DNA from: Candidatus Poribacteria bacterium
GTDB taxonomy: Bacteria; Poribacteria; WGA-4E; UBA9662
Reading direction: 5' to 3'
NCBI GenBank assembly: GCA_002709695.1
Contig: PAQF01000078.1
Location: forward strand, 48,351 to 112,350
DNA length: 64,000 nt
The notes under the pieces were generated by a model. The model made no database searches. It was not told the origin of the DNA and saw nothing but the letters and a program-made list of their open reading frames with translations. Positions within the stretch are counted from its first letter, which is position 1. Each line of letters starts with the position of its first letter. Positions 2,455 to 34,798 of the stretch are shown here, in pieces. Both the position numbers and the translations under genes were made by a program.

Positions 2455-3324
2455 TTGAACAGTATGGGCTTCATTAAGAGACTTTTTTATAAAACTGTTG
2501 AAACAGCAGCTTTAGAAAAAAAAGTGGATCAGAATGCGGATAAAGAATCAAATCCTTTCTTGGCAGATTTTCCTGAAGATACCAGTGAGAGGCAGAATGA
2601 ATCGGATTCTCTTCTGCAGGGTTCCACTGAAATTATACATGCCGATGAGCCAAATCCTGTTCTAGAAGAGTTCAGCGAAACAAGTCAAAGTTCCTCCTCT
2701 TTGGAAGGGGCAAATGAGCTTATTAGTGCAAACAATCTAAGTTTTGTTGACGGTATTGTTTCTGAGACATCTTTCGATCTTCCTATGGGTGAGTTTGATG
2801 ATGATGAAAATAGAATAGATATTGATAAAGTTTTGACAGCTGGTGGAATTGATCGTAATTGGCAGCTAGATAGTGGTGAGTACTCGGCTGAAAAAGTTAT
2901 GCAACTGATTGAAGAAGGTGTTCCGAAAGAAAGCCTCCCACCTGTTATCAAGGTTTCCGGAAAAAATGTTGAGGATATTGTTCAGGATGCTCTGCAAAAA
3001 CAGGGAATTTGTGAAGAGTTTGAAGAGAACTATAAGCAAGAACACCATATCCAACTTGAACAAACTGAAGCTGATATTGAACAGGTTGAGCTGGAAACCA
3101 ATCAAGAGATAGATCAGCTGAAGACAGAAATGGAAATGAGAGTTCAGGATCTTGAAGAAAATCGGCAGAATAGTTTAAATGAACTTTGTGCGAAGAAGCA
3201 GGCTTTAATTCATAAATTCAATCAAGATATCGTTGTTCTAGATAACTACGAGTCTAAGTGTGCAGAAGTGGTAGAATTTCTCAGGCACCCCGAAACGAAT
3301 GAATCAGAGCAATCGATTATTTAG
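2455..3324 (+). CDS. Hypothetical highly acidic coiled-coil protein. The N-terminus (MNSMGFIKRLF...) resembles the N-terminal amphipathic helix of the downstream PspA-like protein. The true start is possibly the ATG at 2464.
   Basis: 289-aa ORF, Asp/Glu-rich, with a predicted coiled coil in the C-terminal half (QLEQTEADIEQVELETNQEIDQLKTEMEMRVQDLEE). No recognisable enzymatic motif. Same strand as, and 33 nt upstream of, the PspA-like gene. Confidence 0.45.
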   Translation: MNSMGFIKRLFYKTVETAALEKKVDQNADKESNPFLADFPEDTSERQNESDSLLQGSTEIIHADEPNPVLEEFSETSQSSSSLEGANELISANNLSFVDGIVSETSFDLPMGEFDDDENRIDIDKVLTAGGIDRNWQLDSGEYSAEKVMQLIEEGVPKESLPPVIKVSGKNVEDIVQDALQKQGICEEFEENYKQEHHIQLEQTEADIEQVELETNQEIDQLKTEMEMRVQDLEENRQNSLNELCAKKQALIHKFNQDIVVLDNYESKCAEVVEFLRHPETNESEQSII

Positions 3325-3357
3325 CTTATTTCACAATATATCTGAGGAGGCAGGAAA

Positions 3358-4122
3358 ATGGGTTTTTTTTCATCAGTCCTTATTCGACTCAAGGGGTTTT
3401 TCCTTCAGGCAGGAGACGACATTGTTTCAGGAAGCACATCAAGTATTAAGGCTACTTATAGAACAATAGAAGAGCAAGAAATTAAACGTTATAATCAAAT
3501 GCTTGATGCTGTTTCTTCTCTTGCAAGACAAAGGTCACAAACAGAACAAGAAATCCAGAAAGATGAAGAGCAACTTAGCGAATTAGCACAGGAAATGGAA
3601 GGCGCGTTAGCTATTGCTGAGCGCGAACCTGAAAATCAGCAAGTACACGAGCAGGCCTACAACCGCGCTTTTACGAAAAAGGAAGAATTAGAAGCCCGTT
3701 TGGAACAACGCCGGAGTAAATTTGAGGAACTAGACCAAAAGGTTGAGAATTACAAAATCGAACTATCCAATTTTCAGGAACGAGTTCAGTCATTGAAACA
3801 AGAAGGTGATGAAGCTGTTGCTGATCTGATCAGTAGTGAGTCAATTGTTCGCATTGAACAAAGATTACAGGGGCTTTCAACAGAAGGTGCGGATCAGGCA
3901 TTAGACGCCGTTCGCCGTAAAGTCCAAGATACAAAGGCTAAAGCCCAAATCGCTTCTGAGATTGGGGGTACCGATGTTTCTCGCCAACGCGAACGCTATC
4001 GAACCGCAGCCAAGCAGAGTAGTGGAGCTAGTGAATTCTCAGAGAGATTGAAGCAAAGGCAGCAAGCAAAAACAGCGCAATCCCAAGCCGAAACAGCAGA
4101 GGAAAGAAAGTTAGGAGAATAG
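3358..4122 (+). CDS. PspA/IM30 (Vipp1)-like coiled-coil membrane-stress protein
   Basis: 254 aa with strong RBS GAGGAGG. The N-terminal amphipathic MGFFSSVLIRLKGFF is followed by a continuous Glu/Gln/Arg/Lys-rich coiled coil (LSELAQEMEGALAIAEREPENQQVHEQAYNRAFTKKEELEARLEQRR...). Length and layout match the PspA/ESCRT-III superfamily, but the family assignment rests on overall pattern, not an alignment. Confidence 0.5.
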   Translation: MGFFSSVLIRLKGFFLQAGDDIVSGSTSSIKATYRTIEEQEIKRYNQMLDAVSSLARQRSQTEQEIQKDEEQLSELAQEMEGALAIAEREPENQQVHEQAYNRAFTKKEELEARLEQRRSKFEELDQKVENYKIELSNFQERVQSLKQEGDEAVADLISSESIVRIEQRLQGLSTEGADQALDAVRRKVQDTKAKAQIASEIGGTDVSRQRERYRTAAKQSSGASEFSERLKQRQQAKTAQSQAETAEERKLGE

Positions 4123-4140
4123 GACAGGAGGAATACAGTA

Positions 4141-5703
4141 ATGGCAGAACAAAAATTGGCGCTTGGCCGAATCTTTATGGTGCTTGTTATTCTCATAGCT
4201 GTTATCGGTGGTCTTGCTTACAAATATGTGATTCCCGAACTTCAAGAGAACCAACAAGCGAAAAAATATGATCAAGCTAGTAGTGGTGGACGTTTTGAGA
4301 CAAATGTCACTGTTGCTGGTGATCCGTGGTCTGGTTATAGTCTTTTTCGTTCTGATCGATTCCGTACGGTTCTTTCCCAACTACAGATTGGTTATCGTTA
4401 TGATACTCAGGAAGATCTAGAGAAACGTTTTCAAGGGTTAGCAGATGGTAAATACGATTTTGTGGTTGCTACCATTGACGGTTATACGCTTAACGCCATC
4501 AATCTTAATTATCCAGGTGTTATTATCTTTTTAGTGGATGAATCCAATGGAGGAGATTCGATTGTTGCCAGTGCAAAAATACAAGCTCTCGATGATTTAG
4601 AAAATGCGAGGGTTTCCTACTCGGCTGGTTTTCCCAGTGAACATCTACTAGATGTTACGCTGACTCATTTTGATATTCTGGGTGTTAGACGTGAACCAGT
4701 GAATGAAGGACTTTCAGAGAAGTCGTATCAAATGTTACAACAGGGACGAGTAGAGGCCGCGGTTGTCTGGGAACCTGAAACATCGCGTGCTATTCAAGAT
4801 GGCTATACTCTACTGACTAGCACCAAGGACAGTGATGATATTATCATTGATGTTTGTATCGCTTCGCGCCAAATTGTCATGGAAAACCCTGAAGTGGTAC
4901 ACAAGGTAACTCGCGCCTATTTTAGGACACTTGATTATTACCAAAAACGAGAATCTGAGTTTGTCCAATATCTGGCTCGAGATGGAGGGGTTAACCAATC
5001 AGTAGCACAGAATATCATGAATGGTATAGACTTTGTCGATCTCAGAGAGAATCACCATCTCTGGTTTGGCATAGGTCAGAATGCCACTGACAAAATTGCA
5101 AAAGTTATTGAAGATACAATTAGTGTCCAACAATTTCATGATAAATTGATGACGGATCCATTTGCTAATAAGCCGGGAAGGGCATATTGGATAGTGAATA
5201 AGGATTTTCTCAGTCAATTGACACCAAATGCTGCTCCTCAAATAAAAGGTATGCCAGAAAAAAAGGTGGCTCCAACCCCAGTTGAGACTAAACGGAAATT
5301 TGCTAGGATGAAAGCCGAGGAGATTGAGAGTAAAACTCGGCGCATCGGTGAAATGAGAGTTGATCCTATCTACTTTGGTAGTGGGTCAGCGAAGTTAAGT
5401 CGTCAGTCGAGATTAGTTGTTGATAAGTTTGCCGAGACCCTTTTGCACTATCCAAATTACCGTTTGGTTTTGCATGGTTATTCATCTCCTACCGGTTCAT
5501 CTCAGATTAACATGGATCTGTCTAGAAAACGTGCTGGATCGATTGCTCGGTATTTGGTTCAAGAACATAGTGTTCAAGGTAGTCGGATTAATACTGTTGC
5601 TCATGGTGATAGGGAACCTCTTGAACGTAATCAAAATGAGACTTATGCTGATTGGTTGGAACGAAATCAACGGACTGAGTTTGTTTTGGTCAAAGATAGA
5701 TAG
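4141..5703 (+). CDS. Membrane-anchored periplasmic substrate-binding-like domain (NMT1/SsuA/TauA/PhnD-like) fused to a C-terminal OmpA/MotB-like peptidoglycan-binding domain
   Basis: N-terminal TM helix (IFMVLVILIAVIGGLAYKYV). The central region (DFVVATIDGYTLNAINLNYPGVIIFLVDESNGGDSIVAS...) resembles a periplasmic binding protein. The C-terminus RVDPIYFGSGSAKLS...YRLVLHGYSSPTGS...NMDLSRKRAGSIARYL...NRRTEFVLV is typical OmpA_C-like. RBS GGAGG. Confidence 0.6.
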   Translation: MAEQKLALGRIFMVLVILIAVIGGLAYKYVIPELQENQQAKKYDQASSGGRFETNVTVAGDPWSGYSLFRSDRFRTVLSQLQIGYRYDTQEDLEKRFQGLADGKYDFVVATIDGYTLNAINLNYPGVIIFLVDESNGGDSIVASAKIQALDDLENARVSYSAGFPSEHLLDVTLTHFDILGVRREPVNEGLSEKSYQMLQQGRVEAAVVWEPETSRAIQDGYTLLTSTKDSDDIIIDVCIASRQIVMENPEVVHKVTRAYFRTLDYYQKRESEFVQYLARDGGVNQSVAQNIMNGIDFVDLRENHHLWFGIGQNATDKIAKVIEDTISVQQFHDKLMTDPFANKPGRAYWIVNKDFLSQLTPNAAPQIKGMPEKKVAPTPVETKRKFARMKAEEIESKTRRIGEMRVDPIYFGSGSAKLSRQSRLVVDKFAETLLHYPNYRLVLHGYSSPTGSSQINMDLSRKRAGSIARYLVQEHSVQGSRINTVAHGDREPLERNQNETYADWLERNQRTEFVLVKDR

Positions 5704-5722
5704 AGTGTAAAGGAGGAAAAAA

Positions 5723-6715
5723 TTGAGACATAAATTACAAATGTATTTATCGTATCTTCTTGTTTACTGTTTCCTCGTGTTTGTTTGTAATCGAGTTATA
5801 TGCGCGGAGCCAGTTAAGGTTGGTGTTTCTATCTGGACAGGTTGGATGCCAATTTATTTAATGGAGGAGAAAGGATTCCTTAAAAAACGGTCGCAGGAAT
5901 ATGGGGTTGAGATTGAACTCAAGAAGTTTAAGGATTATCTTGCCTCTGTGCAGGCATTTACCGCTGGAGAATTGGATGCCTGCGCAATGACAATTATGGA
6001 TGCACTTCCACCCGCTGATGCAGGCATTGATGTTGCCGCTGTGCTTGTCAATGATTTCAGTAAAGGTGGAGATGGAATTCTAGTTCAATATGGTATTGAT
6101 GGTTCAAACTTTAAAGGGGTAGAGATACTACTTGAAGAATACTCAGTTTCACATTATTTACTTCTTCGTTATTTAGAGACAATTGGATTAACAGAAAAGG
6201 ATATCAAGGTGAAAAACACACCTGGTGATGATGCAGGTCGTGCTTTTCTATCAGGAAATGCTGAAGCGGTTGCTACGTGGAACCCACATCTTTTTTTGGC
6301 TGAGGATGCAGGACGTGGCTATGTTTTGTTCAATAGCAAGAAAATCCCCGGTGAAATCATCGACTTGGTAGTATTTAACAACAAACGTTTAAAGCAAAAC
6401 CCCAAAGCTGCTCAAGCTTTTGTCTCCGCTTGGTATGATGCCATGGACATGATTAAGGATTCTGAGACACGACAGGAAGCCATCAGTATTATGTCGGAGC
6501 TGGCTGGGACGAAACCTGCAGAATTCAGCAAAATGCTTGAAGGGACAGATTTGTTTTTTGATCCCCAACGTGCCGCCGCTTTCCTAAACAGTGAAGAAAT
6601 TCGAAAAACAGAGAAAAAAGTGGTCAAATTCGCGCAAAACCATGGACTTATCAACGATGAGGTTAAGCTCAGGTACGATGCAACGGTTATTCGAACTGTT
6701 CGTCTGGCCAAATGA
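5723..6715 (+). CDS. ABC transporter substrate-binding protein, NitT/TauT (nitrate/sulfonate/bicarbonate) family
   Basis: Probable TTG start 6 nt after AGGAGG (an alternative ATG is at 5741). Signal peptide/TM (LSYLLVYCFLVFVCNRVICA), followed by a binding-protein-like fold and SsuA/TauA-like length. It immediately precedes a cognate permease and ATPase. Confidence 0.65.
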   Translation: MRHKLQMYLSYLLVYCFLVFVCNRVICAEPVKVGVSIWTGWMPIYLMEEKGFLKKRSQEYGVEIELKKFKDYLASVQAFTAGELDACAMTIMDALPPADAGIDVAAVLVNDFSKGGDGILVQYGIDGSNFKGVEILLEEYSVSHYLLLRYLETIGLTEKDIKVKNTPGDDAGRAFLSGNAEAVATWNPHLFLAEDAGRGYVLFNSKKIPGEIIDLVVFNNKRLKQNPKAAQAFVSAWYDAMDMIKDSETRQEAISIMSELAGTKPAEFSKMLEGTDLFFDPQRAAAFLNSEEIRKTEKKVVKFAQNHGLINDEVKLRYDATVIRTVRLAK

Positions 6716-7533
6716 GCACTCGAAAATTATACCAGGTTGGCGCAGAAATTGATTCACGATTGTCATCAATTTTAGTGCTTTTGCCTATTGTTTTTGTTAT
6801 ATCGTTGTATTTCTATGGATCACATAAGCGGCATCAGGAAAACCCAAAAGATCGGATGATGCCGAATTTGGAGCAGATTCAATCGGGAATTGTCAAAACA
6901 GTTGAAGTTAACCGGAGGACCGGAGATCGGTGGCTCTGGAAGGATCTCAAATATAGTCTTCGGTTGATGGTTGTAAGTGTAACGATTACTGTTGGGTCTG
7001 CTGTGCTCGTTGGGTTGCATATGGCCTGTTTCTCAGCTATTGAAGCGTTGCATATGAAGTTTGTGCGCTTTGTCAGTTTCATCCCACCTCTAGCTCTGTT
7101 GCCCTTGATATTTATTTTTGTTGGCACCGACACACCAGCAAAAGTATTGCTCATCTTTTTAGGGACATATTTTATATTAGTAATGGATGTTTTTCTCGCT
7201 TGCAGGGATGTTCCGAAGAAGCTAATACAGAAAGCTTACACCATGGGGGCATCAACTGTAGAGGTTGTCTTCAAAGTCGTGTTAATGTACGCTTGGCCTA
7301 GAATCCTGAATAGTATTCGTTTTACACTTCGGCAGGCTTGGATATTTTTAATTGCTGCTGAGATGATTGCTTCTGAAGCTGGGTTAGGTTATCGTATTAT
7401 ATTGGTTCAGAGGCAGATCGGTGTCAATATCATTTTATGGTACATTTTTATTATTGGCACTATTGGTTTCATCTGTGATTTTATACTATTACAGGTTATT
7501 CAGAGGTATTATGCTTGGAGTTTGGAGAGATAG
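6712..7533 (+). CDS. ABC transporter permease, NitT/TauT family (SsuC/TauC-like)
   Basis: Multi-TM protein carrying an EAA-loop-like motif (ASEAGLGYRIILVQRQ). Overlaps the upstream SBP gene by 4 nt (ATGA). Confidence 0.8.
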   Translation: MSTRKLYQVGAEIDSRLSSILVLLPIVFVISLYFYGSHKRHQENPKDRMMPNLEQIQSGIVKTVEVNRRTGDRWLWKDLKYSLRLMVVSVTITVGSAVLVGLHMACFSAIEALHMKFVRFVSFIPPLALLPLIFIFVGTDTPAKVLLIFLGTYFILVMDVFLACRDVPKKLIQKAYTMGASTVEVVFKVVLMYAWPRILNSIRFTLRQAWIFLIAAEMIASEAGLGYRIILVQRQIGVNIILWYIFIIGTIGFICDFILLQVIQRYYAWSLER

Positions 7534-7537
7534 CATT

Positions 7538-8422
7538 ATGTCTGAATCCTTGTTGGCATTAGAGATCAAAGATCTGACACTTGTTTTTAAGGATCGGAAA
7601 GCGACAAAGGTTGTTCTGAGTGATGTTAATTTACAGGTCAAGCAAGGCGAATTTGTTGCTATTGTGGGGCCTAGCGGTTGTGGCAAATCGTCTTTATTGA
7701 ACTTGATTGCAGGATTCATTCAACCTACTTCAGGCCAAATTTTGGTCGATGGGGAGCCCATTGAGGGGCCTAATCGGAATATAGGAGTTGTGTTTCAGGA
7801 TTATACACTTTTTCCTTGGTTGACAGTTGTTGACAATGTAGCGTACGGTATGGAATTAGCAGAAATCGATTTTCTTATGAAATGGATTCGTCCCTTTCGT
7901 TTTCGGCAGTTGCACCGTGCTTTCAGAGAAAAAGCAGGCTTTTATCTTGAAGAGATGGGTTTGAAGGAAGCCCAACATAAGAAGCCCTACCAATTGTCAG
8001 GTGGAATGAAGCAAAGAGTAGCCATCGCCCAGGAGGTTATTCGAAAACCGTCGATTTTGCTTATGGATGAACCCTTTGGCGCCCTCGACCCACAGACACG
8101 AGAGGTTCTTCAGGTATTAATCCTAAAAATTCATGAACAGGAACGGAATACCATCTTTTTCGTAACGCACGATTTGGAAGAAGCCGTTTACGTTGCTGAA
8201 CGCGTTATTGTTCTCTCACAATATAAGCCAAATGGTAACAGTGAGGGTGCCACAATTGTCAAAGATGTCTGCGCCCCAGTATTTAAATCTACCGAGGTAA
8301 AACGAACAGATGACTTTGGGGGGCTAATCCAAGATATTCGAAGGTCAGGATTTGCACCGGATCAGAGGGATATTGTAAAAGCATTTGATCAGAGCTATCA
8401 AGACAAAGCAGATAGTCGGTAG
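7538..8422 (+). CDS. ABC transporter ATP-binding protein (SsuB/TauB-like)
   Basis: Walker A GPSGCGKSS, Q-loop, signature LSGGMKQRVAIAQ, Walker B LLMDEPFGALD. The listed ORF start at 7421 overlaps the permease. The ATG at 7538 (MSESLL...), 4 nt after the permease stop, is the likely start. Confidence 0.85.
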   Translation: MSESLLALEIKDLTLVFKDRKATKVVLSDVNLQVKQGEFVAIVGPSGCGKSSLLNLIAGFIQPTSGQILVDGEPIEGPNRNIGVVFQDYTLFPWLTVVDNVAYGMELAEIDFLMKWIRPFRFRQLHRAFREKAGFYLEEMGLKEAQHKKPYQLSGGMKQRVAIAQEVIRKPSILLMDEPFGALDPQTREVLQVLILKIHEQERNTIFFVTHDLEEAVYVAERVIVLSQYKPNGNSEGATIVKDVCAPVFKSTEVKRTDDFGGLIQDIRRSGFAPDQRDIVKAFDQSYQDKADSR

Positions 8423-8561
8423 ATTGTAACTGTTTTTACCTCTGATATTTCCCCAAATCCTATCTGAAACTCGAATTTGTAAGATACTCCGACGTCTTTC
8501 GCAATTTTATGCTGGTGGGATACTGTTTCAAGATCGGTGAGTTATAATTTAGATAACGACA

Positions 8562-9398
8562 ATGACCATGCAACAAGAGAATGATCTTTCGTACCAGAAA
8601 TTAACTTGGAATTTATTTAAAGAGTGCCTTTTTCAGCCTCTATTCTATGGTCCGTTGGCAACTGGGATTTTTTTAGCATTTATTGATAAGCCTGTTCTTT
8701 CACTAGGAGCATTTGTAGCTAGTGCTATATCGTTCTCGTACTATTTTCTTCTGGGCAAGGCACCGCGTAGGCGTATCCAACAGCAAATTGAGGAGCAGAT
8801 TCAACATAACAATGAGGAGAAAATTCGCTTAGATCAGGAGAGCCGATCGGAACTTCATCAGGAACTTGATGAGCGTGGTAGATCCCATTTCGAAAATTTG
8901 ATCAAATTGGAACAAATGCTTGATGAAAAACTAATGAATTTAGGCAATCAGTTAGTGGTCAGTCAGTTGGTAAAGATGTCTAAAGAGGTTACTTTGGAAT
9001 CCATCAAATCTTTGAGAAACCGGGTGATTTACACATCATTGTTAGAACAGTTCGATGTCCAAAAATTGCAGCGGGATCTGAGTGAGACAAAAAAAAAGTA
9101 TGAGGGTGAACGTGATGTCAACCTCAAGAGAGAATTTCGTGAAACAATACAGGCACTAACTAATGAGCTTAACCAACTTAAGAAGTTAGAGACTACGGTT
9201 GAGCAACTAGAACAGGACATCATTACTGCGCAATCTTCGCTTCGAGGTTCCATTCTTCTCGTATCGCAACCAAAGTCAGCTGACCATACATCACGTTTAG
9301 AGCAACAAGTTGCCAAACTACGAGACGAAGTCGAAGTGGCTAGAAAGGTTAATCAAGAATTGGCGCGTTTTGGTATTGATCCTTCGATGAAGGCTTAG
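8562..9398 (+). CDS. Hypothetical membrane protein: two N-terminal TM helices followed by a long coiled coil
   Basis: 278 aa. Hydrophobic segments PLATGIFLAFIDKPVLSLGAFVASAISFSYYFLLG, then heptad-like charged repeats to the C-terminus. No catalytic motif. Confidence 0.5.
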   Translation: MTMQQENDLSYQKLTWNLFKECLFQPLFYGPLATGIFLAFIDKPVLSLGAFVASAISFSYYFLLGKAPRRRIQQQIEEQIQHNNEEKIRLDQESRSELHQELDERGRSHFENLIKLEQMLDEKLMNLGNQLVVSQLVKMSKEVTLESIKSLRNRVIYTSLLEQFDVQKLQRDLSETKKKYEGERDVNLKREFRETIQALTNELNQLKKLETTVEQLEQDIITAQSSLRGSILLVSQPKSADHTSRLEQQVAKLRDEVEVARKVNQELARFGIDPSMKA

Positions 9399-9613
9399 TG
9401 GGATATAGAGTTTTTTTATTTAACGAATCGTTTCAATTTATTAACTTAAGCATTTTTCAGTCCACCTCAGTTAGGACCTTTTGACTTAAAAGCTCTGTCT
9501 AACCCCTTGTAGGCTAAGTAATTGCATAATCTTCGTACAGATGCCATAATATATAATTCTCTCTTTGGAAGGTTAACTTTCTTTAATTTTCAGGACAGAG
9601 CAGGCTGAAAAAA

Positions 9614-11332
9614 ATGAATTGGAAATCAGCACCGCAATTTCTCCAGACGATTATCCAGAAGTTCAATTCTGGGCAGAGCAATCAATTCATATTATACGGG
9701 AACGTGCGTGATTTGTATTCGTTAGGGAAAGACCAGTTCTATTTTTTGACTGACTGTCTAAAACGGTTAATGGACCCTCCTGAAGGTGATCAAAGGCGTG
9801 TCATTGTCTATTATGATTTAATCAGTGGGGTCCAGTTCCGGAATCAAGATGACTTGGTTCTTGTTGAGTCTATTTTGGGACAATCTGAACTTCAGAAGTA
9901 TATGCAGGATAGTGTCCAAAATCCACTGCAAGCATTGGTTTTCCTTCAGGAACTGAGCAAAATCAGTCTTCATGCCATCGACTCCGGAAAGCAAGGATGG
10001 GGTTTCATAATCAACCATGTTGAATCGTTGATTCACCGTCAAGAAGGTAATCATCTGAACGAAGTTGAGCAACGGAAAGCAATGATTTTCCATCAGTGGT
10101 TTACGGATCCGACTTTTGTTCGTGGACACCATTTAGCTATTCTGATTACACAAACGCTCGCAGAGCTAAATGAAATGGTGATTGAACTCCCTTTTGTCAC
10201 TGCCATCCAAGTGCCTCGACCAAATGATATACAGCGACAAAGATATCTTCGGTTTCTCAAAAAGCAACATCATGTTAGTTTGGGGTTGAGGGAAAAAGAT
10301 GCCGTTTTCTATACGGGCGGCTTGACCCTACAAGATTTGCAGAAGATGTTTATGCAAGCGAATCATACTGGTACGAAGCTAACTGCTGAAATGATATTTC
10401 AGCTTACGCAAGAAGTAATTGAAAAAGAACTTAGTGGGAATATTGAATTCCCAATTATTGATCATGATTTTTCCGATGTAATTGGGTCTAAAAAATTATT
10501 AGTAAAATTGGAGGAAATGAAGTCTTTCATTCTGAGTGGTAACTCTGACTTGATGCCAACCGGCATTCTCGTACCTGGCCCGAATGGTGTGGGTAAAACC
10601 TATATTTTCAAGGCGTTTGCTAAAGAATGTGGTTACTTGCCGGTAATCATTAAGAATGTCCGTGGTCAGTATGTTGGACAGACGGAAATGACATGGGAGA
10701 AAATTCGGTCAATTCTTGAAGTCATGGGAAATGTAATGGTGATTTATGACGAAGCCGACACAGAACTTGGAGGTCGGGGTGCTGGTACACATGATGTCGA
10801 TAAGCGGCTCTTTGGGGCAGTTTTGAGGATGATGAGTGACCTGAATAATCGTGGGAAAATCATCTGGATAATTATTACTGCTAGGCCTGATAAACTAGAA
10901 CCGGATATCAAACGAACCGGACGTGCAGGTGAGCACTTGTCTGTCTTTGACCCGGAAGGACAAGAACGTGAAGAATTTATCGATTTTGTCATGTCGAAAA
11001 TTGGATTATCATTCAATGATTTTCTTGAAGATCAAAAACAGCGGTTTTTGGATCATACTGCCAGTTATTCTCCAGCTGATTTTATTCAACTTTTAACCAA
11101 TTTGGAACGCAAAAAACATCTTATCTCTAGGAATCTAACAGCAGATGAAATTTTAGAAACTGGGTATGACTTTATTCCTGCGGATATTAGCTTGCAACGG
11201 CAACTACAGGAATTATTGGCATTTGTTGAATGTTCGTATCAAAGCCTAATTCCGGAAAAATATGCCCAGACAACTAAGCAAAAAGCTTACGCTCAGATTG
11301 GCGAGTTGAAAATTTTATTGGGTGAAAATTAG
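9614..11332 (+). CDS. AAA+ ATPase with a classical AAA C-terminal module and an N-terminal degenerate AAA-like domain
   Basis: C-terminal module: Walker A GPNGVGKT, Walker B VIYDEAD, sensor-1 IIITAR and Arg-finger region PDIKRTGRAGEH (FtsH/CDC48-clade-like). The N-terminal ~300 aa contain QFILYGNVRDLY, which resembles a Walker-A-less AAA core. Confidence 0.75.
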   Translation: MNWKSAPQFLQTIIQKFNSGQSNQFILYGNVRDLYSLGKDQFYFLTDCLKRLMDPPEGDQRRVIVYYDLISGVQFRNQDDLVLVESILGQSELQKYMQDSVQNPLQALVFLQELSKISLHAIDSGKQGWGFIINHVESLIHRQEGNHLNEVEQRKAMIFHQWFTDPTFVRGHHLAILITQTLAELNEMVIELPFVTAIQVPRPNDIQRQRYLRFLKKQHHVSLGLREKDAVFYTGGLTLQDLQKMFMQANHTGTKLTAEMIFQLTQEVIEKELSGNIEFPIIDHDFSDVIGSKKLLVKLEEMKSFILSGNSDLMPTGILVPGPNGVGKTYIFKAFAKECGYLPVIIKNVRGQYVGQTEMTWEKIRSILEVMGNVMVIYDEADTELGGRGAGTHDVDKRLFGAVLRMMSDLNNRGKIIWIIITARPDKLEPDIKRTGRAGEHLSVFDPEGQEREEFIDFVMSKIGLSFNDFLEDQKQRFLDHTASYSPADFIQLLTNLERKKHLISRNLTADEILETGYDFIPADISLQRQLQELLAFVECSYQSLIPEKYAQTTKQKAYAQIGELKILLGEN

Positions 11333-11654
11333 GCTTTGATTTTCCTTGATAATCTTGGGACTGGAGTCGACATTTTTTAAATTGATGATGAACTGGCCTA
11401 AAATTAAGAGGTGATGAATCTCATTAAAGAAGACAATACAGAGTATTGTACCCGTAGTATTTCCGCATGTATTGAGTTTTTCTTATTTTAGATTATAGGG
11501 ACGTTTTATTACTAAAGCAGACTCGAAAGTATCTATGATATCTGATCCATCCGAAAAAATTTAAATGGTTAAATCTAATGGCCTTGGTATATAAGGCCTT
11601 AAGTCAACATAACAATGTAGCCTTGATTTTGAGGGGAGATTTCAGGGATTTCTA

Positions 11655-13967
11655 ATGTTCAAGCCTCTCTTTATACTTGTCTTTGTCCTTTCAAGTGTGG
11701 GATTTGAAGTGGGTTCACAAATCCTAATTGATAGGGTTGATCAAAAAGTTCATGGTTTGTATTATAGTATCAATGATGAGATCTTTGCCGTTACTACCTC
11801 GAGTAGTGTGAACTTATATAATGCAAAAAAACGAAATAAGGTTTTCGAGATCAAACTTTCTAACAGGCCTAAACAAGTTACCTTTGAAGTACAGGAAAGT
11901 TGGATTGCGGTTCTCATGAGCACAAACACAGTAGACGTTTGGGATATTCGAGGTAAGAACAAAGTGTTCACTATTCAGGCCAAACAGATTGAAAAAGAAA
12001 TTGTAGACATCTGGTTTGTATCATCGGGATTGTGTGTTGGATTAATTGATGGAACACTTTTAAAATTTAATGTGGGTCAAACCGAACCGGAGCAAGTTAT
12101 CGGTGCGAATTACCATGATGTAGCAGGACTTCGCTTCAACCCAACAATTACGCATCAATTCGCAATTGTTCGCAATAACACAATCAGTCTCCACAATTTT
12201 AGAAAAACATTATGGGAGAATCTAGATGGGGCTGACATTGATATGGATAGGTTGGTATTCAATTCCTTGGGTGATCAAATAGCATTTGTTCGTAGTGATA
12301 TTGTGGAAGTGAGGGATTGTCAAACAGGTCATATTCTCAACCAGATAGAGTTCGATGACAAAATCGTAAGTTTTTGTTTCGCACGCCAACCTAATGTTGG
12401 TATTTCTGTATCCTCAAACAATATGATACAGATGTGGGATCTATCAGCTAATCGGGTAGCTAAGACATATCAATACAAACAAGTAAATTCTCCTATTCGA
12501 AATCTAGATTGTACGAAAAACGGCAGGCAATTTGCTTTTTCAACCGATGCAGGAGAAGTTTGGCTTGGTGGAGAAGTGCGAAGAATGAATATCGCAAAAC
12601 AAGTTAAACCGAAAAAAAAACAGGTCTTAGTTAGAAAACCGAAGGCCTTGGTATTGAAGGCAACTCCCTTACCGCCTTATGTCATCACAGTTGGAGAGAC
12701 TATTGAACTTCAGGTCGAATGTTCGCTGTCAGCAGTAATACAATTGTTTACATCAGTCGATAATGCTAGTTTTGATTCAACTTACAATCTGTTTCAGTGG
12801 ACACCTGATTTCTCTCAGGTAGGAGAGAAGGAAATAAGATTTTCGGCAGAAACAAAAGATGGTCGCTCTACTTTCCTGGATCTTGATATTGAGGTTCAGT
12901 CTATTAATATAGCGCCAATTTTCACCAAAATTGGCGCACTTGAAGTACAGAATAACTCAACACCAAAATTAAAAATTAATGAAGGAGAAGTACTTAATAC
13001 CAAGGTGCAAGCTGATGATCAAAATGGTGATTTGCTAACCTATACTGCGACAGGTTTGCCAAACGGTGCTCAAATGGAAGGAAATCGAATTCGATGGAAA
13101 CCATCGTTCGATTTTGTATCTGTTGCAGATCTCAAAACTGAAATCTTGGTTACGTTGATGGCTAGTGATGGCGAATTACATGCCAAACTTCCGATTACTA
13201 TTACTGTATATAACATGGATCAACCAACAGCAACACAACCTGAAGAAAAAATAACAGATGATATCCAAGTTGACCTGCGACCACCTGATCAAATGATTCG
13301 GATTCCCGAGAGGGATTTTGTGATTGGTATAGACAGTGGTATCTCAGAAGAACCGAGCAATGTAGTTTTCATGTTAGCATTTGATGTTGATCGGTTTGAA
13401 GTTACAAATGCTGATTATGCGAACTTTCTGAATAGTCGTCAACGTGTTATTGACACCGAGGGCAAAGTTTTGATTAATCTTGACTCTAAGACTACGAAGA
13501 TTAAGCAAATCAGCAATGGATATCAAGTTCAATTAGGTTTTGAAAGGCACCCGGTTGTAGGGGTGAGTTGGTATGGTGCGAAAGTTTATGCTGAGTGGGT
13601 AGGAAAACGTTTATTAACTGAGATTGAGTGGGAGTCAATTGCCAGAGGAAATGATCAGCGTCTCTTTCCTTGGGGTAACCAGTCGCCCAGAGAGAATGAA
13701 AATTTGCTAAATTATAGGTCGAAAGCCCCAGTGCCGGTTGGGAGTTATCCGAAAGGAGCAAATCCATGGGGTGTACATGATTTATCTGGAAACGTGGCAG
13801 AGTGGGTGATACCAAAGAAAGTTGATGGAGAACCGAAGATAGTCCGAGGAGGGTCATGGAAGAGTCTAAATCCTAGAAGTGTCAGAGCCACTGCACGGTT
13901 TCCTCTATTATCTGAGCAAATGATTTCTTGGGTTGGTTTCCGATGTGCACGTGATATTGAAAACTAA
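11655..13967 (+). CDS. Large secreted multidomain protein: signal peptide, beta-propeller-like repeats, Ig/cadherin-like region, C-terminal formylglycine-generating-enzyme (FGE/SUMF1, DUF323) domain
   Basis: N-terminal signal peptide MFKPLFILVFVLSSVGF. The C-terminal ~250 aa (HPVVGVSWYGAKVYAEWVGKRLLTEIEWE...WGVHDLSGNVAEWV...RGGSW...GFRCARD) match the FGE-sulfatase fold used by GldK/PorK/EgtB-type proteins. Confidence 0.7.
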   Translation: MFKPLFILVFVLSSVGFEVGSQILIDRVDQKVHGLYYSINDEIFAVTTSSSVNLYNAKKRNKVFEIKLSNRPKQVTFEVQESWIAVLMSTNTVDVWDIRGKNKVFTIQAKQIEKEIVDIWFVSSGLCVGLIDGTLLKFNVGQTEPEQVIGANYHDVAGLRFNPTITHQFAIVRNNTISLHNFRKTLWENLDGADIDMDRLVFNSLGDQIAFVRSDIVEVRDCQTGHILNQIEFDDKIVSFCFARQPNVGISVSSNNMIQMWDLSANRVAKTYQYKQVNSPIRNLDCTKNGRQFAFSTDAGEVWLGGEVRRMNIAKQVKPKKKQVLVRKPKALVLKATPLPPYVITVGETIELQVECSLSAVIQLFTSVDNASFDSTYNLFQWTPDFSQVGEKEIRFSAETKDGRSTFLDLDIEVQSINIAPIFTKIGALEVQNNSTPKLKINEGEVLNTKVQADDQNGDLLTYTATGLPNGAQMEGNRIRWKPSFDFVSVADLKTEILVTLMASDGELHAKLPITITVYNMDQPTATQPEEKITDDIQVDLRPPDQMIRIPERDFVIGIDSGISEEPSNVVFMLAFDVDRFEVTNADYANFLNSRQRVIDTEGKVLINLDSKTTKIKQISNGYQVQLGFERHPVVGVSWYGAKVYAEWVGKRLLTEIEWESIARGNDQRLFPWGNQSPRENENLLNYRSKAPVPVGSYPKGANPWGVHDLSGNVAEWVIPKKVDGEPKIVRGGSWKSLNPRSVRATARFPLLSEQMISWVGFRCARDIEN

Positions 13968-14042
13968 AGTGCTTTTCAAAACTGGCATTTCGGTGGCCAG
14001 ATGCTTGTAAAACAAAATTTTTAAAATTGATGGAGTATAAGT

Positions 14043-14840
14043 ATGATAAAAGTCATTGTTGATGGTGCTTGTGGTCGAATGGGTAAAATGTTAACTTCCC
14101 TAGTCACTAGACAACCAGATATGGAGCTTGTTGGGGCAACAGAGTATCCTTCACATCCGAAAATAGGTGTAGATGTTGGTGAGGTTGCTGGTATCGGTTC
14201 AATTGGAATCAAAATTGTGGAAGATCTAACAGCTGTTATTAATTATGGAGATGTCGTCATCGAGTTCACATCTCCTGAAGCTACGATCTCTAATTTCAAA
14301 AAAGTCGTTGATGCAGGAAAGTCTATGGTCATTGGCACAACTGGTTGTACAATTGACCAATTGACGGAAATCCGATTGTTAGCAGAACATGTTCCGTGTC
14401 TTATGTCGCCGAATATGAGTGTTGGGGTTAACGTTATGTTGAAAGCAATCGAGCTTGTGGCCAAAGCACTTGGTGATGAATATGATGTCGAAGTTATTGA
14501 AGCTCACCATAATCAGAAAGCAGACTCACCTAGTGGTACTGCTGTCCGTATCGCCGATGTGTTAGCAACGGCATTAGACCGAGACATTAATCAAGTTGGT
14601 GTTTACGGTCGTGAAGGGATAGTTGGAGCACGTCCCGAGAAAGAGATTGGTATTCATGCCATTCGTGGAGGTGACATTATTGGTGATCATACTGTTCTTT
14701 TCGCTGGAATTGGTGAAAGGGTAGAGGTTTCCCATAGGGCACAGAGCCGCGAGTCTTTTGCTAGTGGGGCAGTCCGAGCTGCACGGTGGATTATTAATGC
14801 ACCTAAAGGACTTCATGATATTAGTGAAGTTCTCTTCTAA
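14043..14840 (+). CDS. dapB: 4-hydroxy-tetrahydrodipicolinate reductase
   Basis: N-terminal Rossmann motif VDGACGRMG. Conserved HHNQKADSPSGTA substrate-binding motif. 265 aa. Confidence 0.85.
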   Translation: MIKVIVDGACGRMGKMLTSLVTRQPDMELVGATEYPSHPKIGVDVGEVAGIGSIGIKIVEDLTAVINYGDVVIEFTSPEATISNFKKVVDAGKSMVIGTTGCTIDQLTEIRLLAEHVPCLMSPNMSVGVNVMLKAIELVAKALGDEYDVEVIEAHHNQKADSPSGTAVRIADVLATALDRDINQVGVYGREGIVGARPEKEIGIHAIRGGDIIGDHTVLFAGIGERVEVSHRAQSRESFASGAVRAARWIINAPKGLHDISEVLF

Positions 14841-14879
14841 CACTTACAGGATTTTGTCAGCCTATAAGGGGGATATCTT

Positions 14880-15455
14880 GTGGATTTGCAAAAGAAAATT
14901 GACGGCTGGTTTGTGCCACTTTCTTGTAGCGAGAAGACTTTGAGTTCAGCTTATCAGGAACTTCAGAAGTTTGGTTTGAAACAAGAAGAAATTCCTTACA
15001 TTATACAGATTGTGGAAAACCCCAAATTCGATTTGCCAGGCGGTGATATTTTTCATGGGAAGACAGATATAGAAACACACGATTACCTTCACATTATTTT
15101 GGGTAGAGGAGTCCTTGCAAAAGATGAGGCTTTTGTTATTGGCTTTACTATGGGAAGCTCCAACCGTGTTACTTCGACTGAGGAAAGCCTCTATAGTTTT
15201 TTTGCTAAGTATTTATACCCCAAAGCATACCGTTTTACGGATGACGACCTACACGTTTTCAAAGATGCGGTGAAGCTTGGTTTTATTTCCGATTGTCAAT
15301 CTTTGGCCGAGGTGGACTACTCTTGTTATCTTCAGTATCCGTTGCAGGAGATACGAGAGGACTTGGGTATAGAAACCAACCTGTTACAAGCTTATTACGC
15401 TATTGAGAAACGACGATATCCGGATTCAGTAGAGAGCCAAAGGTTGCTCAGTTAG
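14880..15455 (+). CDS. Hypothetical protein (GTG start)
   Basis: 191-aa ORF with no overlap and no recognisable motif (contains HDYLHIILGRG). Same strand, 40 nt after dapB. Confidence 0.45.
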   Translation: MDLQKKIDGWFVPLSCSEKTLSSAYQELQKFGLKQEEIPYIIQIVENPKFDLPGGDIFHGKTDIETHDYLHIILGRGVLAKDEAFVIGFTMGSSNRVTSTEESLYSFFAKYLYPKAYRFTDDDLHVFKDAVKLGFISDCQSLAEVDYSCYLQYPLQEIREDLGIETNLLQAYYAIEKRRYPDSVESQRLLS

Positions 15456-15518: not shown

Positions 15519-17396
15519 TTGTGCCATTTTGAATTTAAGGAGACCATTATGCCTTTAAAAAGGTTAATTATCGTTATTTTGCTGAGTGTGATGTGTTTTG
15601 TTTCGACTACCAATGCGCAACAGAATTTTTCAGATGAAATAGGGCCTACCCGGGTTAGAGTTGTTCAATCCCAAGATCCATTGTTAATTCCTTATATTAC
15701 TTGGGGGGGGGAATCGGCGTTATTTTATGCTAATGGAGGTTTATCGACTCAACCTAATTCAATCATGGCTAGTTTGGGATTAAATTTAAAGCTGGTTCCG
15801 GGTGATGACTTTATGCAGCAAGTCAGGGATTACTTAGCTGGTAGATCCCCAGTTCTACGCGGTACGTTTAGAATGATTGCTCAAGCTAGCGAAGTAATTG
15901 GACGCGATCCTAGGACACAGGGTGTTGTTTTTGGTCAGTTAACTTGGTCTGCTGGTGATCATTTTGTTGGCAGATCTAACATTAGAAAAATCTCTGACTT
16001 AAAGGGTAAAAAGATCGCTGTCCAAAAAGGGGGACCTCATGTTGGGATGTTGTATGATATGTTGTTGACGGCTAGACTTCCAAAGTCTGACCTGCAGATC
16101 ATATGGATGGATGAATTAACGGGAAAAAACAGCCCAGCGGAAAAGTTTAGGATAGACCCAACAGTCTCCGGTTGTTTTGTCATTACACCGGATATGCTTA
16201 GTTTGGTTGGTGATTATCACGCAATTGGTGATGGGACAGGAGGTACGGTTAAAAGCGCACGATTGGTGGTTAGTACAGCAACATTATCCCGTTCGATTGC
16301 AGATGTTTATGTATGCCGAAAAGATTATATTGATAAAAATAGTGTCGTCGTTGAAAAGTTTTTTGCTGGGTATTTAAAAGGTGCAGAAGAAGTTATTCGT
16401 CTGAAAAAAGATTATGAAGCCGGTGGTTCAAAAAAGTATATGGCTCTACTTCAAATGATGCAGGATATTTATGGGAAGTCAGTGTTACCAACGCTTGATG
16501 AAGATGCTCATGGGCTTATCGCTGATTGTGCGTTTGTTGGGCAACCTGGCAATATGGCGTTTTTTAATGATTCGACAAATGTTGTAACAGGATTTGAAGG
16601 GGTTAATAAAAATGGGCTGGATATGGCTATCAACTGGGGATTTGCTAGAAAGAGACACAACTTGATCAGTTCTAGCTTGGATTTCAAATCGCCAACTTTT
16701 ACAAACCTACTAACAACAACTGTTATGACTCCGATTCAAAGAAAGCGTTTCAAAGAAGAATCAGTTAGAGCTGAAATTGAAACATTTAGTGAAGAAGATA
16801 TTCTAGACGATAATACACTAATATCATTTACAATTCAGTTTGAAGCTAACCAGGACACGTTCAGTGAAACTCAGTATCGTGAAGAATTCGATCGCGTTAT
16901 TGAACTTACTTCTCGGTTTGGTAACGCGGCGGTAGCGATTAAAGGACATACTGATCCCTCAAAAGTTCTGTTTTCTTTGGTAAAAACTGGAATTAAAAGA
17001 GGAATTCTAAAGCGGACAGGAACAAGAGGAAGTTATGAGTATTTTATGAACGGTAGGTCCTTTAGTTTGGAAGACACATCCGAATTGATTCGGCTGATTC
17101 AACAAAAGAAATTTGATGACGGGAGTGATTTTGATGGACCATACCAAATAATGAGAGCTGGTCTGAAGTTGTCTGAGCAGAGGGGGGAGGCTGTCAAGAA
17201 AGCGATTCTTGCCTATGCGAGCAGAAAAAACGTAAGGATTGAAGCTGAACAGATTATTCCAGTAGGAGTTGGTATCAAAGAGCCTGTGATTGCTAAGCCA
17301 ACGAACTCGGTGGAAGCGGCAAAAAACCGGCGTGTGGAGTTTGCTTTAATTAAGATTTCTTCTGAGTCTGTTGCTGAGGCTGATTTTGATTTCTAA
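15519..17396 (+). CDS. Secreted substrate-binding-like domain fused to a C-terminal OmpA-like domain that carries a large insertion; paralogous in architecture to 4141..5703
   Basis: Signal peptide IVILLSVMCFVSTTNA. Binding-protein-like region (KKIAVQKGGPHVGMLYDMLL). C-terminus AVAIKGHTDPSKV...[~60 aa insert]...LSEQRGEAVKKAI...NRRVEFALI matches an OmpA_C-like motif. Contains a 9-G run at 15703..15711. Confidence 0.6.
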   Translation: MCHFEFKETIMPLKRLIIVILLSVMCFVSTTNAQQNFSDEIGPTRVRVVQSQDPLLIPYITWGGESALFYANGGLSTQPNSIMASLGLNLKLVPGDDFMQQVRDYLAGRSPVLRGTFRMIAQASEVIGRDPRTQGVVFGQLTWSAGDHFVGRSNIRKISDLKGKKIAVQKGGPHVGMLYDMLLTARLPKSDLQIIWMDELTGKNSPAEKFRIDPTVSGCFVITPDMLSLVGDYHAIGDGTGGTVKSARLVVSTATLSRSIADVYVCRKDYIDKNSVVVEKFFAGYLKGAEEVIRLKKDYEAGGSKKYMALLQMMQDIYGKSVLPTLDEDAHGLIADCAFVGQPGNMAFFNDSTNVVTGFEGVNKNGLDMAINWGFARKRHNLISSSLDFKSPTFTNLLTTTVMTPIQRKRFKEESVRAEIETFSEEDILDDNTLISFTIQFEANQDTFSETQYREEFDRVIELTSRFGNAAVAIKGHTDPSKVLFSLVKTGIKRGILKRTGTRGSYEYFMNGRSFSLEDTSELIRLIQQKKFDDGSDFDGPYQIMRAGLKLSEQRGEAVKKAILAYASRKNVRIEAEQIIPVGVGIKEPVIAKPTNSVEAAKNRRVEFALIKISSESVAEADFDF

Positions 17397-17438: not shown

Positions 17439-18392
17439 ATGCAGAACAAAAGCTTAAAAGCGTTTCTATTTGCTATCTTTGTTTTTCTTGTGCCTTTATC
17501 TGTGACTTTTTTATCTGCTGAGAATATACATACAGATAATATTGTTGTTGTTTTGGATGCATCGGGATCGATGCAAGAGGAATTCAGTAGCGATCCAACA
17601 CAAATAAGGATGGATGCAGCTAAAACAGCATTACAAGCAGTTTTAACAATGATTCACGACGGCACGAATGTTGGACTCCTCGTTTTTAGTGGTTCCAATG
17701 TGAATAAACATTGGGTTTATCCTCTTGGACCAAAGAACAATGAGGTTTTGGCTAAAGCTATTAATTTACCCCTTCCTGGGGGTAAAACGCCTCTGGGGGA
17801 ATACCTCAAAATTGGTGCTGATCGACTTCTTGAGCAACGGGAAAAACAGTATAATTATGGAAGTTATCGTCTATTAGTTGTGACAGATGGCGACGCAAGT
17901 GACCGTGATAAGGTTCAGTTGTATACACCAGAGATAATGCGTAGGCAAATTCGAATTGATGTGATCGGCGTAGACATGGAAAAAAATCATATGTTAGCTA
18001 CCGTTGTTGATAGTTATCGTCGAGCTGACAATCCGAAGCAATTAATAAAAGCAGTATCCGATGTTCTCGCTGAGGTTCCCAGTACTGGGATAGATACTGA
18101 AGGGGAGAATATGTTTGAACTAATATCACCGCTTACCGATGAAGTAGTTTTGTCTCTGATTAGTGAAATAACAAAAGTTCCAGGAAATCAACCCATTGGC
18201 ACCCAGTTGGTAACACCTGCACAGGCAACAGAGATGAGTGCGCCAACTCTAACAGTTAATACTGGTACTAGTCAGCCAAGTAGTAATCAAAAGTCCAACA
18301 TAGGATTTTTGATTATCATTATCGGTTTATTAGTAATAACATGGCTAATTTTTAAAAAAATCAAGCCAATGATAAGGCCTAGCATCAAATAG
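17439..18392 (+). CDS. von Willebrand factor type A (VWA) domain protein with signal peptide and C-terminal TM anchor
   Basis: MIDAS-like IVVVLDASGSM, later LVVTDGDASD. Ser/Thr-rich linker, then a hydrophobic C-terminal helix FLIIIIGLLVITWLIF. Confidence 0.7.
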   Translation: MQNKSLKAFLFAIFVFLVPLSVTFLSAENIHTDNIVVVLDASGSMQEEFSSDPTQIRMDAAKTALQAVLTMIHDGTNVGLLVFSGSNVNKHWVYPLGPKNNEVLAKAINLPLPGGKTPLGEYLKIGADRLLEQREKQYNYGSYRLLVVTDGDASDRDKVQLYTPEIMRRQIRIDVIGVDMEKNHMLATVVDSYRRADNPKQLIKAVSDVLAEVPSTGIDTEGENMFELISPLTDEVVLSLISEITKVPGNQPIGTQLVTPAQATEMSAPTLTVNTGTSQPSSNQKSNIGFLIIIIGLLVITWLIFKKIKPMIRPSIK

Positions 18393-34715: not shown

Positions 34716-34798
34716 GCCCCTGTGGTGGAATTGGTATACACGGCAGGTTGAGGGCCTGTGTCTTCTTAGGCGTGCTGGTTCGAGTCCAGTCGGGGGCA
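34716..34798 (+). tRNA. tRNA-Leu (anticodon GAG), type II with long variable arm; no encoded CCA
   Basis: Folded manually. Acceptor GCCCCUG/CGGGGGC with an A discriminator. Anticodon stem GCAGG/CCUGU, loop UUGAGGG (GAG, G37). Variable arm ~14 nt. T-arm GCUGG-UUCGAGU-CCAGU. Confidence 0.8.

Follow-up and report, generated by a model that had tools for sequence, protein, structure and literature searches.

Bacterial PspA co-occurs with a protein carrying two AAA+ modules, the N-terminal of which is inactive, and in longer operons of this type these two are joined by genes for a permease, an ABC ATPase, a PBPb+OmpA protein and a divergent Snf7 protein anchored in the membrane (Ravi et al. 2024, mSystems, PMC11237479). 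In the Handelsmanbacteria operon of Table S3 of that study, the genes follow the order X, PspA, PBPB+OmpA, TM(s), ABC-ATPase, TM+Snf7 and inactive-AAA+AAA, the 'X(s)' genes that precede PspA being without assignment. OGG56892.1 (Candidatus Handelsmanbacteria) and AEY64320.1/AEY64321.1 (Clostridium sp. BNL1100) were given as examples, and ATP-dependent membrane remodelling comparable to that by Snf7/Vps4 was proposed (PMC11237479). According to a 2025 review, bacteria appear to lack a Vps4-like ATPase (PMC7619361), which raises the question of how bacterial ESCRT-III-type polymers, such as PspA and Vipp1, are disassembled. Here, we describe a locus of this type in a 64,000-nucleotide stretch (hereafter the window) of a marine Candidatus Poribacteria genome (GenBank assembly GCA_002709695.1, contig PAQF01000078.1, positions 48,351 to 112,350 of the forward strand), a region that recurs on 110-187 kb ocean-metagenome contigs. 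It encodes a tandem AAA ATPase, identical to NCBI protein CMK22_19320, and, 5.5 kb upstream on the same strand, a PspA-like protein.

A sequence-only reading of this stretch had grouped three consecutive genes into an envelope module, namely a coiled-coil protein with a two-transmembrane (2TM) hairpin (CC278), the ATPase, and a secreted protein ending in an FGE fold (FGE770). The three open reading frames (ORFs) lie exactly at the coordinates first noted (Table 1), the quoted motifs are present in their translations, conserved homologs exist for all three, and Pfam and NCBIfam confirm the four domain calls (AAA, FGE-sulfatase, WD40-type propeller and a weak Ig-like match). The grouping survives in part: CC278 and the ATPase are linked across phyla, whereas FGE770 is not a third component, and the key partner, the PspA-like gene, had been missed. 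We conclude that CC278 and the ATPase are probably components of a PspA-centred envelope system in which the ATPase would remodel a PspA-like polymer, FGE770 being a bystander. In the window, this system comprises nine genes, coding for the PspA-like protein, CC278, the tandem AAA ATPase, a solute-binding protein (SBP), a permease, an ABC ATPase, two PBPb-OmpA proteins and a VWA protein.

The suggestion that no such system had been described has to be abandoned, as Ravi et al. (PMC11237479) had reported PspA with inactive-AAA+AAA, TM+Snf7 and ABC/PBPb-OmpA genes. The content and order of window positions 2455-11332 are those of that operon, the match being one of domain architecture and gene order: the ATPase has two AAA modules with an inactive N-terminal one, a PspA-family gene lies in its neighbourhood (3358-4122), and 4141-8422 codes for a PBPb+OmpA protein together with a permease and an ABC ATPase, families that recur in the metagenome locus L069 and partly in the Sumerlaeota locus L055. 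The minimal PspA and AAA dyad of the published description is likewise found here, in Desulfobacterota. The window differs by an additional stand-alone SBP, by the presence in the set, as seen in L069, of a second PBPb-OmpA paralogue and a VWA protein, of which no mention was found in PMC11237479, and by its interruption by FGE770, dapB and a 191-aa ORF (h191). Hence, this kind of system has already been described computationally, and the nine-gene list, with its second PBPb-OmpA and VWA proteins, slightly extends the published description.

The ATPase belongs to a family of ~580 aa that is conserved over its full length. Members from Desulfomonilaceae, Syntrophales and Coatesbacteria are 42-47% identical to it, and those from Sumerlaeota and one other bin 34-35%. 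Its C-terminal module, D2 (residues 318-442 of 572 by Pfam and NCBIfam), is a classical AAA domain with a GPNGVGKT Walker A, a DEAD Walker B, a YVG pore loop and the Arg fingers R434/R437. Throughout the family, the Walker A (GxNGVGKT), the DEAD box, the YVG loop and the two arginines of the second region of homology are invariant. In the N-terminal module, D1, LYGNxxD stands in place of the P-loop GxxGxGK[ST] (GNxxD in the family), and the Walker B acidic pair is absent. Profiles of the two domains aligned in register but weakly by hhalign (probability 11%), and the internal AAA duplication was accepted because structure comparison, not hhalign, settled the question: in the AlphaFold2 (AF2) model of the ATPase, both modules are covered by the alignments to Pex1, Rix7 and Pex6. 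The degenerate AAA domain that the sequence-only reading had placed at the N-terminus is thus borne out. Compared with type II tandem AAA unfoldases whose D1 is degenerate (Pex1/Pex6, Rix7 and p97/VAT), the window ATPase lacks the double-psi-barrel substrate/adaptor domain and is much shorter, at 14-17% identity.

Two established families were considered for the ATPase and rejected. Membership of CDC48/p97/VAT is contradicted by an NCBIfam score of 73 bits over D2 only (CDC48 TIGR01243, cut-off 802 bits), by the absence of the double-psi barrel N-domain and by the length of 572 aa. Membership of Vps4/CdvC, which combine an N-terminal MIT with a single AAA cassette bearing a beta-domain, is contradicted by an N-terminal half that is an AAA-like alpha/beta domain and by a CdvC score of 25.9 bits (cut-off 650 bits). 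As in the ESCRT-III/Vps4 systems of eukaryotes and the CdvB/CdvC systems of archaea, an ESCRT-III-superfamily protein is encoded with a classical-clade AAA protein possessing an aromatic pore loop, and the proposed logic, an ATP-driven extraction of subunits that would remodel a membrane-bound polymer, is the same. By contrast, the window ATPase has two AAA modules, with D1 dead, the polymer protein is of the PspA/Vipp1 type and not of the Snf7 type, and there are no ESCRT-I/II genes.

The PspA-like protein of the window scores 21.4 bits (E 2e-4) against Pfam PF04012 (PspA_IM30), below the gathering cut-off of 33.9 bits. PF04012 is nevertheless matched by 24/24 aligned family members at E<=0.01 (best 6e-13), and a search of the family profile against the PDB places Vipp1/PspA structures on top (8qfv, E 3.6e-7, positions 6-214), the best solved structures matched being Synechocystis Vipp1 and PspA, over ~200 positions. 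Because the single protein is sub-threshold yet the whole family and its profile match PspA/Vipp1, it is, judged from sequence, a member of a divergent PspA/IM30 subfamily rather than a canonical one. Its N-terminal amphipathic segment is conserved (MGFFSSVLIRLKGFF; family form MGFFGKLWAxIRGFF), and its extreme C-terminus, ERKLGE, corresponds to the family tail K-E-R-[DENK]-L-G. Both termini are kept in homologs from L007-L057, from Poribacteria to Desulfobacterota, the tail being absent in the L069 protein, and the K-E-R-x-L-G tail is a candidate ATPase-recognition element. With the classical Psp system (PspF-PspABC, Proteobacteria), the locus shares a PspA-family effector, an AAA+ protein and a membrane-stress context. 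It differs in that PspF is an NtrC-type sigma54 activator with a helix-turn-helix, not a classical-clade tandem AAA protein, that the window has neither PspB nor PspC, and that its PspA-like protein falls under the PspA_IM30 gathering score.

Gene neighbourhoods were compared in 53 loci taken from GTDB genomes, plus further metagenome loci, whose ORFs were searched with the window proteins and family profiles. Adjacency to the PspA-like gene was counted in the 49 loci with enough upstream sequence, and adjacency to FGE770 in the 49 loci with at least 3 kb downstream. The PspA-like gene is the most frequent neighbour of the ATPase: it lies directly upstream, ending within 400 nt, in 34/49 loci, including the complete genome of the cultured Desulfomonile tiedjei DSM 6799 (CP003360.1), where the PspA-like protein has 248 aa and the AAA protein 580 aa, and was found in 41 loci overall. 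The most frequent arrangement is the Desulfobacterota one, a minimal dyad of PspA-like and AAA genes without PBPb-OmpA, VWA or 2TM genes. In L069, homologs of the nine window genes, namely the second PBPb-OmpA paralogue (NMT625), the VWA protein (VWA317), the first PBPb-OmpA fusion (OmpA520), CC278, the PspA-like protein, the SBP, the permease, the ABC ATPase and the AAA protein, form one contiguous same-strand block, with no homolog of FGE770, DapB, h191 or the 289-aa ORF that precedes the PspA-like gene (up_289). Because this block is without all three of them, FGE770, dapB and h191 (11655-15455) interrupt the conserved system in the window. In L055, the ATPase is flanked by a CC278-family gene and by both PBPb-OmpA paralogues. 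Our data demonstrate the domain identities of the encoded proteins, the tandem-AAA fold and the conservation of these neighbourhoods in Poribacteria, Desulfobacterota, Sumerlaeota and an unassigned metagenome lineage.

In CC278, KAPRRR and long helices come after a hydrophobic hairpin (~27-65), and the AF2 model of the protein is all-helical, with low confidence (pLDDT 60.7). Among 1.84e9 proteins, only 10 representative clusters belong to this tiny family. Because its members are encoded next to the ATPase in L062 and L064 (Poribacteria relatives), in L055 (E 1.5e-7) and in L069, the CC278-ATPase link is real and cross-phylum. CC278 holds the position of the 'SIG+TM+Snf7' gene in the operon of Ravi et al. 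A distant relative (P0136; L071 2845-3579, L072 3315-4049) is encoded between maf and a phosphodiesterase gene, without the ATPase. It matches Pfam Rv2743c/PspM, the mycobacterial PspA membrane partner, with a sub-threshold E of 0.014, the sole hint of a PspA connection for CC278. In a bin labelled Saccharibacteria (L056; ATPase 35% identical), another 278-aa protein is encoded two genes upstream of the ATPase (8628-9464). A single hydrophobic segment lies at its N-terminus, it contains a coiled coil, and its hhalign match to the PspA-like profile (probability 70%, E 4e-5) spans the whole protein. A weak Band-7-like ORF is found near its gene.

The remaining components are a transporter and its periplasmic companions. 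In OmpA520, an N-terminal hydrophobic anchor (1-34) precedes NMT1 (131-268) and OmpA (411-501, E 4e-17) matches in Pfam and an SsuA_fam match (96-291) in NCBIfam, and homologs adjoin the ATPase in L055 and L069. The SBP reaches 276 bits with NCBIfam TIGR03427, under its cut-off, and has a homolog in the L069 block (227 bits). NMT625 is set apart from the rest in the window and is part of the conserved system; its homologs adjoin the ATPase in L055 (315 bits) and belong to the L069 block (235 bits). VWA317, with a signal-like segment at 4-30 and a transmembrane segment at 284-312, is a probable component, a homolog (82 bits) being flanked by the two PBPb-OmpA genes in L069/L070. In the window, the NMT625 and VWA317 genes lie 3' of FGE770 and dapB; their L069 homologs (3887-7968) are contiguous with the PspA-like/AAA system.

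Table 1. Features of the window around the tandem AAA ATPase gene.
Feature	Position	Strand	Description	Basis or remark
up_289	2455..3324	+	acidic coiled-coil protein, 289 aa	33 nt 5' of the PspA-like gene; system membership uncertain
PspA-like	3358..4122	+	PspA/IM30-like (ESCRT-III superfamily) protein, 254 aa, soluble	Pfam PF04012, profile search
OmpA520	4141..5703	+	PBPb (NMT1/SsuA-type) + OmpA-like peptidoglycan-binding fusion, 520 aa, membrane-anchored, periplasmic	Pfam, NCBIfam
SBP	5723..6715 (gene-caller start 5741)	+	periplasmic SBP, NitT/TauT-type ABC transporter	Pfam NMT1_2, E 7e-22
Permease	6712..7533	+	ABC permease	Pfam BPD_transp_1, E 8e-14; L069 homolog 153 bits
ABC ATPase	7511..8422	+	ABC transporter ATPase, 303 aa from called start	Pfam ABC_tran, E 3e-38; L069 homolog 264 bits
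CC278	8562..9398	+	2TM hairpin + cytoplasmic coiled coil, 278 aa	hydrophobicity, AF2
Tandem AAA ATPase	9614..11332	+	572 aa	D1 degenerate, D2 active classical AAA
FGE770	11655..13967	+	secreted beta-propeller + Ig-like + FGE fold, 770 aa	Pfam, NCBIfam
DapB	14043-14840			interrupts the system with FGE770
h191	14880-15455		191-aa ORF	weak Coq4-like match, E 0.004, under cut-off; conserved in Poribacteria relatives
NMT625	15519..17396 (gene-caller start 15549)	+	second secreted PBPb (NMT1) + OmpA-like paralogue, 625 aa	Pfam NMT1, weak OmpA
VWA317	17439..18392	+	secreted VWA protein, 317 aa, C-terminal transmembrane anchor	Pfam VWA, E 2e-12

ATP-driven remodelling of a PspA-like membrane polymer, by analogy with Vps4, is the likely function predicted for the system. 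The ATPase would assemble into a hexamer and, driven by ATP hydrolysis in D2, would pull subunits out of a membrane-bound PspA-like polymer, or unfold them, with its invariant YVG pore loop; CC278 may nucleate or anchor the polymer. The ATPase would thereby disassemble or remodel this polymer, as Vps4 does ESCRT-III, and the PBPb-OmpA and VWA proteins, together with the ABC transporter, could couple membrane maintenance to a solute or cell-wall signal. We put forward more tentatively, as a possibility that falls short of even odds, the full version of this model, in which the tandem AAA protein would be a bacterial Vps4 counterpart that disassembles a CC278-anchored PspA-type polymer under periplasmic control by peptidoglycan-tethered PBPb/VWA proteins and the ABC transporter. 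If true, the locus would encode a trans-envelope, ATP-driven membrane-remodelling machine and would contradict the statement that Vps4-like ATPases appear to be absent in bacteria (PMC7619361). The dyad, a computational prediction, makes the question of polymer disassembly directly testable, and the nine-gene form suggests that cytoplasmic membrane remodelling is tied to the sensing of solutes or the cell wall in the periplasm.

Several observations weigh against this reading. D2 is closest to VAT/p97/CDC48 and FtsH-type domains and not to Vps4, which is not among the top 60 PDB sequence matches of the ATPase, and the ATPase has no MIT domain. Classical AAA proteins have an Asn at sensor-1 (ATNRPD). 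The corresponding D2 position, residue 423, is an invariant Ala (ITARPD), preceded by an equally invariant Thr422. A Snf7 fold of CC278 is not confirmed, with no detectable PspA/Snf7 homology: Pfam (8 members and 6 distant members) and the PDB, queried with the single sequence and with two profiles, showed no such similarity, hhalign comparisons with the PspA-like profile reached probabilities of 2% and 0.4%, and a Foldseek search of the PDB with the low-confidence AF2 model gave no match at E<0.1. As for the neighbourhoods, a single order-level group (Desulfomonilaceae/Syntrophales) supplies most dyad loci, so that the count of 34/49 does not stand for 34 independent events, and the downstream TsaD, phosphoribosyltransferase and K+ channel genes are equally syntenic in this group. 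No PspA-like gene is adjacent in L009, L060 and L062. In three Desulfomonilales loci (L019 7656-9926, L030 7300-9603 and L035 3256-5529), a TPR and Ser/Thr protein kinase of 756-767 aa, itself preceded by a multi-4Fe-4S protein, replaces the PspA-like gene directly upstream of the ATPase. The gaps flanking the CC278 gene (139 nt and 215 nt) make co-transcription less certain, and a promoter and terminator scan of the window gave nothing above shuffled expectation and no firm operon boundaries. Finally, no experimental study of the PspA-like and AAA dyad was found in the literature.

The main rival to polymer remodelling casts the ATPase as a segregase or assembly chaperone of the CDC48 kind that would extract or assemble the membrane proteins of a trans-envelope transporter complex (PBPb-OmpA, VWA, permease and 2TM proteins), with the PspA-like protein as a stress-protective co-resident and not as the substrate. 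We consider it unlikely, although the resemblance of D2 to VAT/p97/CDC48 and FtsH-type domains rather than to Vps4 speaks in its favour. It also draws on L009 and L062, in which CC278 and the transporter persist although no PspA-like gene is adjacent, and on L055, the visible part of which has 2TM and PBPb-OmpA genes and no PspA-like gene. However, the L055 contig ends just upstream of the ATPase, where a PspA-like gene could lie, and the Desulfobacterota dyad, the commonest arrangement, pairs PspA-like and AAA genes in loci devoid of the PBPb-OmpA, VWA and 2TM genes.

An ATPase that is an unrelated housekeeping AAA protein, with neighbourhoods reflecting accidental lineage synteny, appears improbable. 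In Desulfomonilaceae, its gene is always followed by the housekeeping genes for TsaD, the phosphoribosyltransferase and the K+ channel, and its neighbours are unrelated in some lineages, as this explanation would have it. A functional meaning for the Desulfobacterota downstream block (TsaD, phosphoribosyltransferase, K+ channel, GATase) was itself rejected in favour of lineage synteny of housekeeping genes. Yet PspA-like, CC278, PBPb-OmpA and NitT/TauT ABC genes recur in at least four distant lineages with different gene orders, namely in the window, L055, L069 and Desulfobacterota, to which Handelsmanbacteria and Clostridium are added by PMC11237479.

The original three-gene module, in which a cytoplasmic AAA motor would work with an extracytoplasmic FGE-fold protein, is very improbable and largely refuted by synteny. 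The three genes are consecutive and on the same strand, no + strand terminator is predicted between the ATPase and FGE770 genes, and their adjacency is kept in Poribacteria relatives, with FGE770 homologs 72-95% identical. This adjacency is uninformative, however, because those relatives share the gene order of the whole region, dapB and a GNAT gene included. Only in this closest marine Poribacteria clade, to which its full-length architecture is confined (>=72% identity), does FGE770 come after the ATPase, and overall it does so in 1/49 loci. It is absent after the ATPase in L009/L063/L064, where the ATPase is 74% identical and a pterin-4a dehydratase gene is found instead, in L060 and L062, relatives at 63% and 59%, and in every other phylum, and the contiguous L069 system does without it. 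In the window, a 322-nt gap with a promoter-like site (11376-11404) separates it from the ATPase. We conclude that FGE770, with dapB, was inserted into the locus in one Poribacteria clade and is not part of the conserved system. The AAA-FGE pairing is thus an accident of local gene order, the informative partner lying outside the flagged coordinates. As for anti-phage defence, we give it almost no credence, since the weak PADLOC matches of the ATPase (IetA, E 4e-7, 27.9 bits; TRIP13, E 4e-6) cover the generic AAA module only, no IetS protease, HORMA or CD-NTase partner is present, and the locus, with its transporter, PspA-like and housekeeping neighbours, is stably syntenic and not island-like.

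In FGE770 itself, WD40-type propeller matches cover ~30-320, followed by a weak Ig-like match and an FGE-sulfatase domain at 545-766, and the N-terminus is signal-like without a lipobox Cys. The sequence-only reading had left the choice between a catalytic and a GldK-like domain to the Cys pair: in the loop GGSWKSLNPRS--VRATAR, Ser occupies both catalytic Cys positions (human C336/C341, GGSYMCHRSYCYRYRC loop), as it does in the Poribacteria homologs P0144-P0146, hence the domain is non-catalytic and a catalytic FGE/SUMF1 identity is discarded. The best PDB match is the non-catalytic SUMF2/pFGE (1y4j, E 3e-19). Identity with PorK/GldK or GldJ was also rejected, the scores of 66 bits (GldK) and 24-27 bits (GldJ) being far under the NCBIfam equivalog cut-offs of 350 and 458 bits, respectively, and so was identity with EgtB, for which the score is far under the cut-off. 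FGE770 shares with SUMF2/pFGE and PorK/GldK an FGE-sulfatase fold without the catalytic Cys pair; it differs by its N-terminal beta-propeller and Ig-like architecture and by the lack of a lipobox, and no type 9 secretion system genes were seen among the window neighbours. The simplest reading is that FGE770, with its non-catalytic FGE fold, is secreted and serves as a binding protein specific to this lineage.

Upstream of the system, up_289 has no significant family match in Pfam or NCBIfam, and its homologs are limited to the Poribacteria loci L007/L008. An 860-aa ClpB-type disaggregase gene (Clp_N, two AAA, ClpB_D2-small) lies at ~1-2100 on the - strand, upstream of up_289 and divergent from it. 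A search of the whole 64-kb window, intergenic gaps included, with Rfam at gathering thresholds returned a tRNA at 34716-34798 (+) as its sole match.

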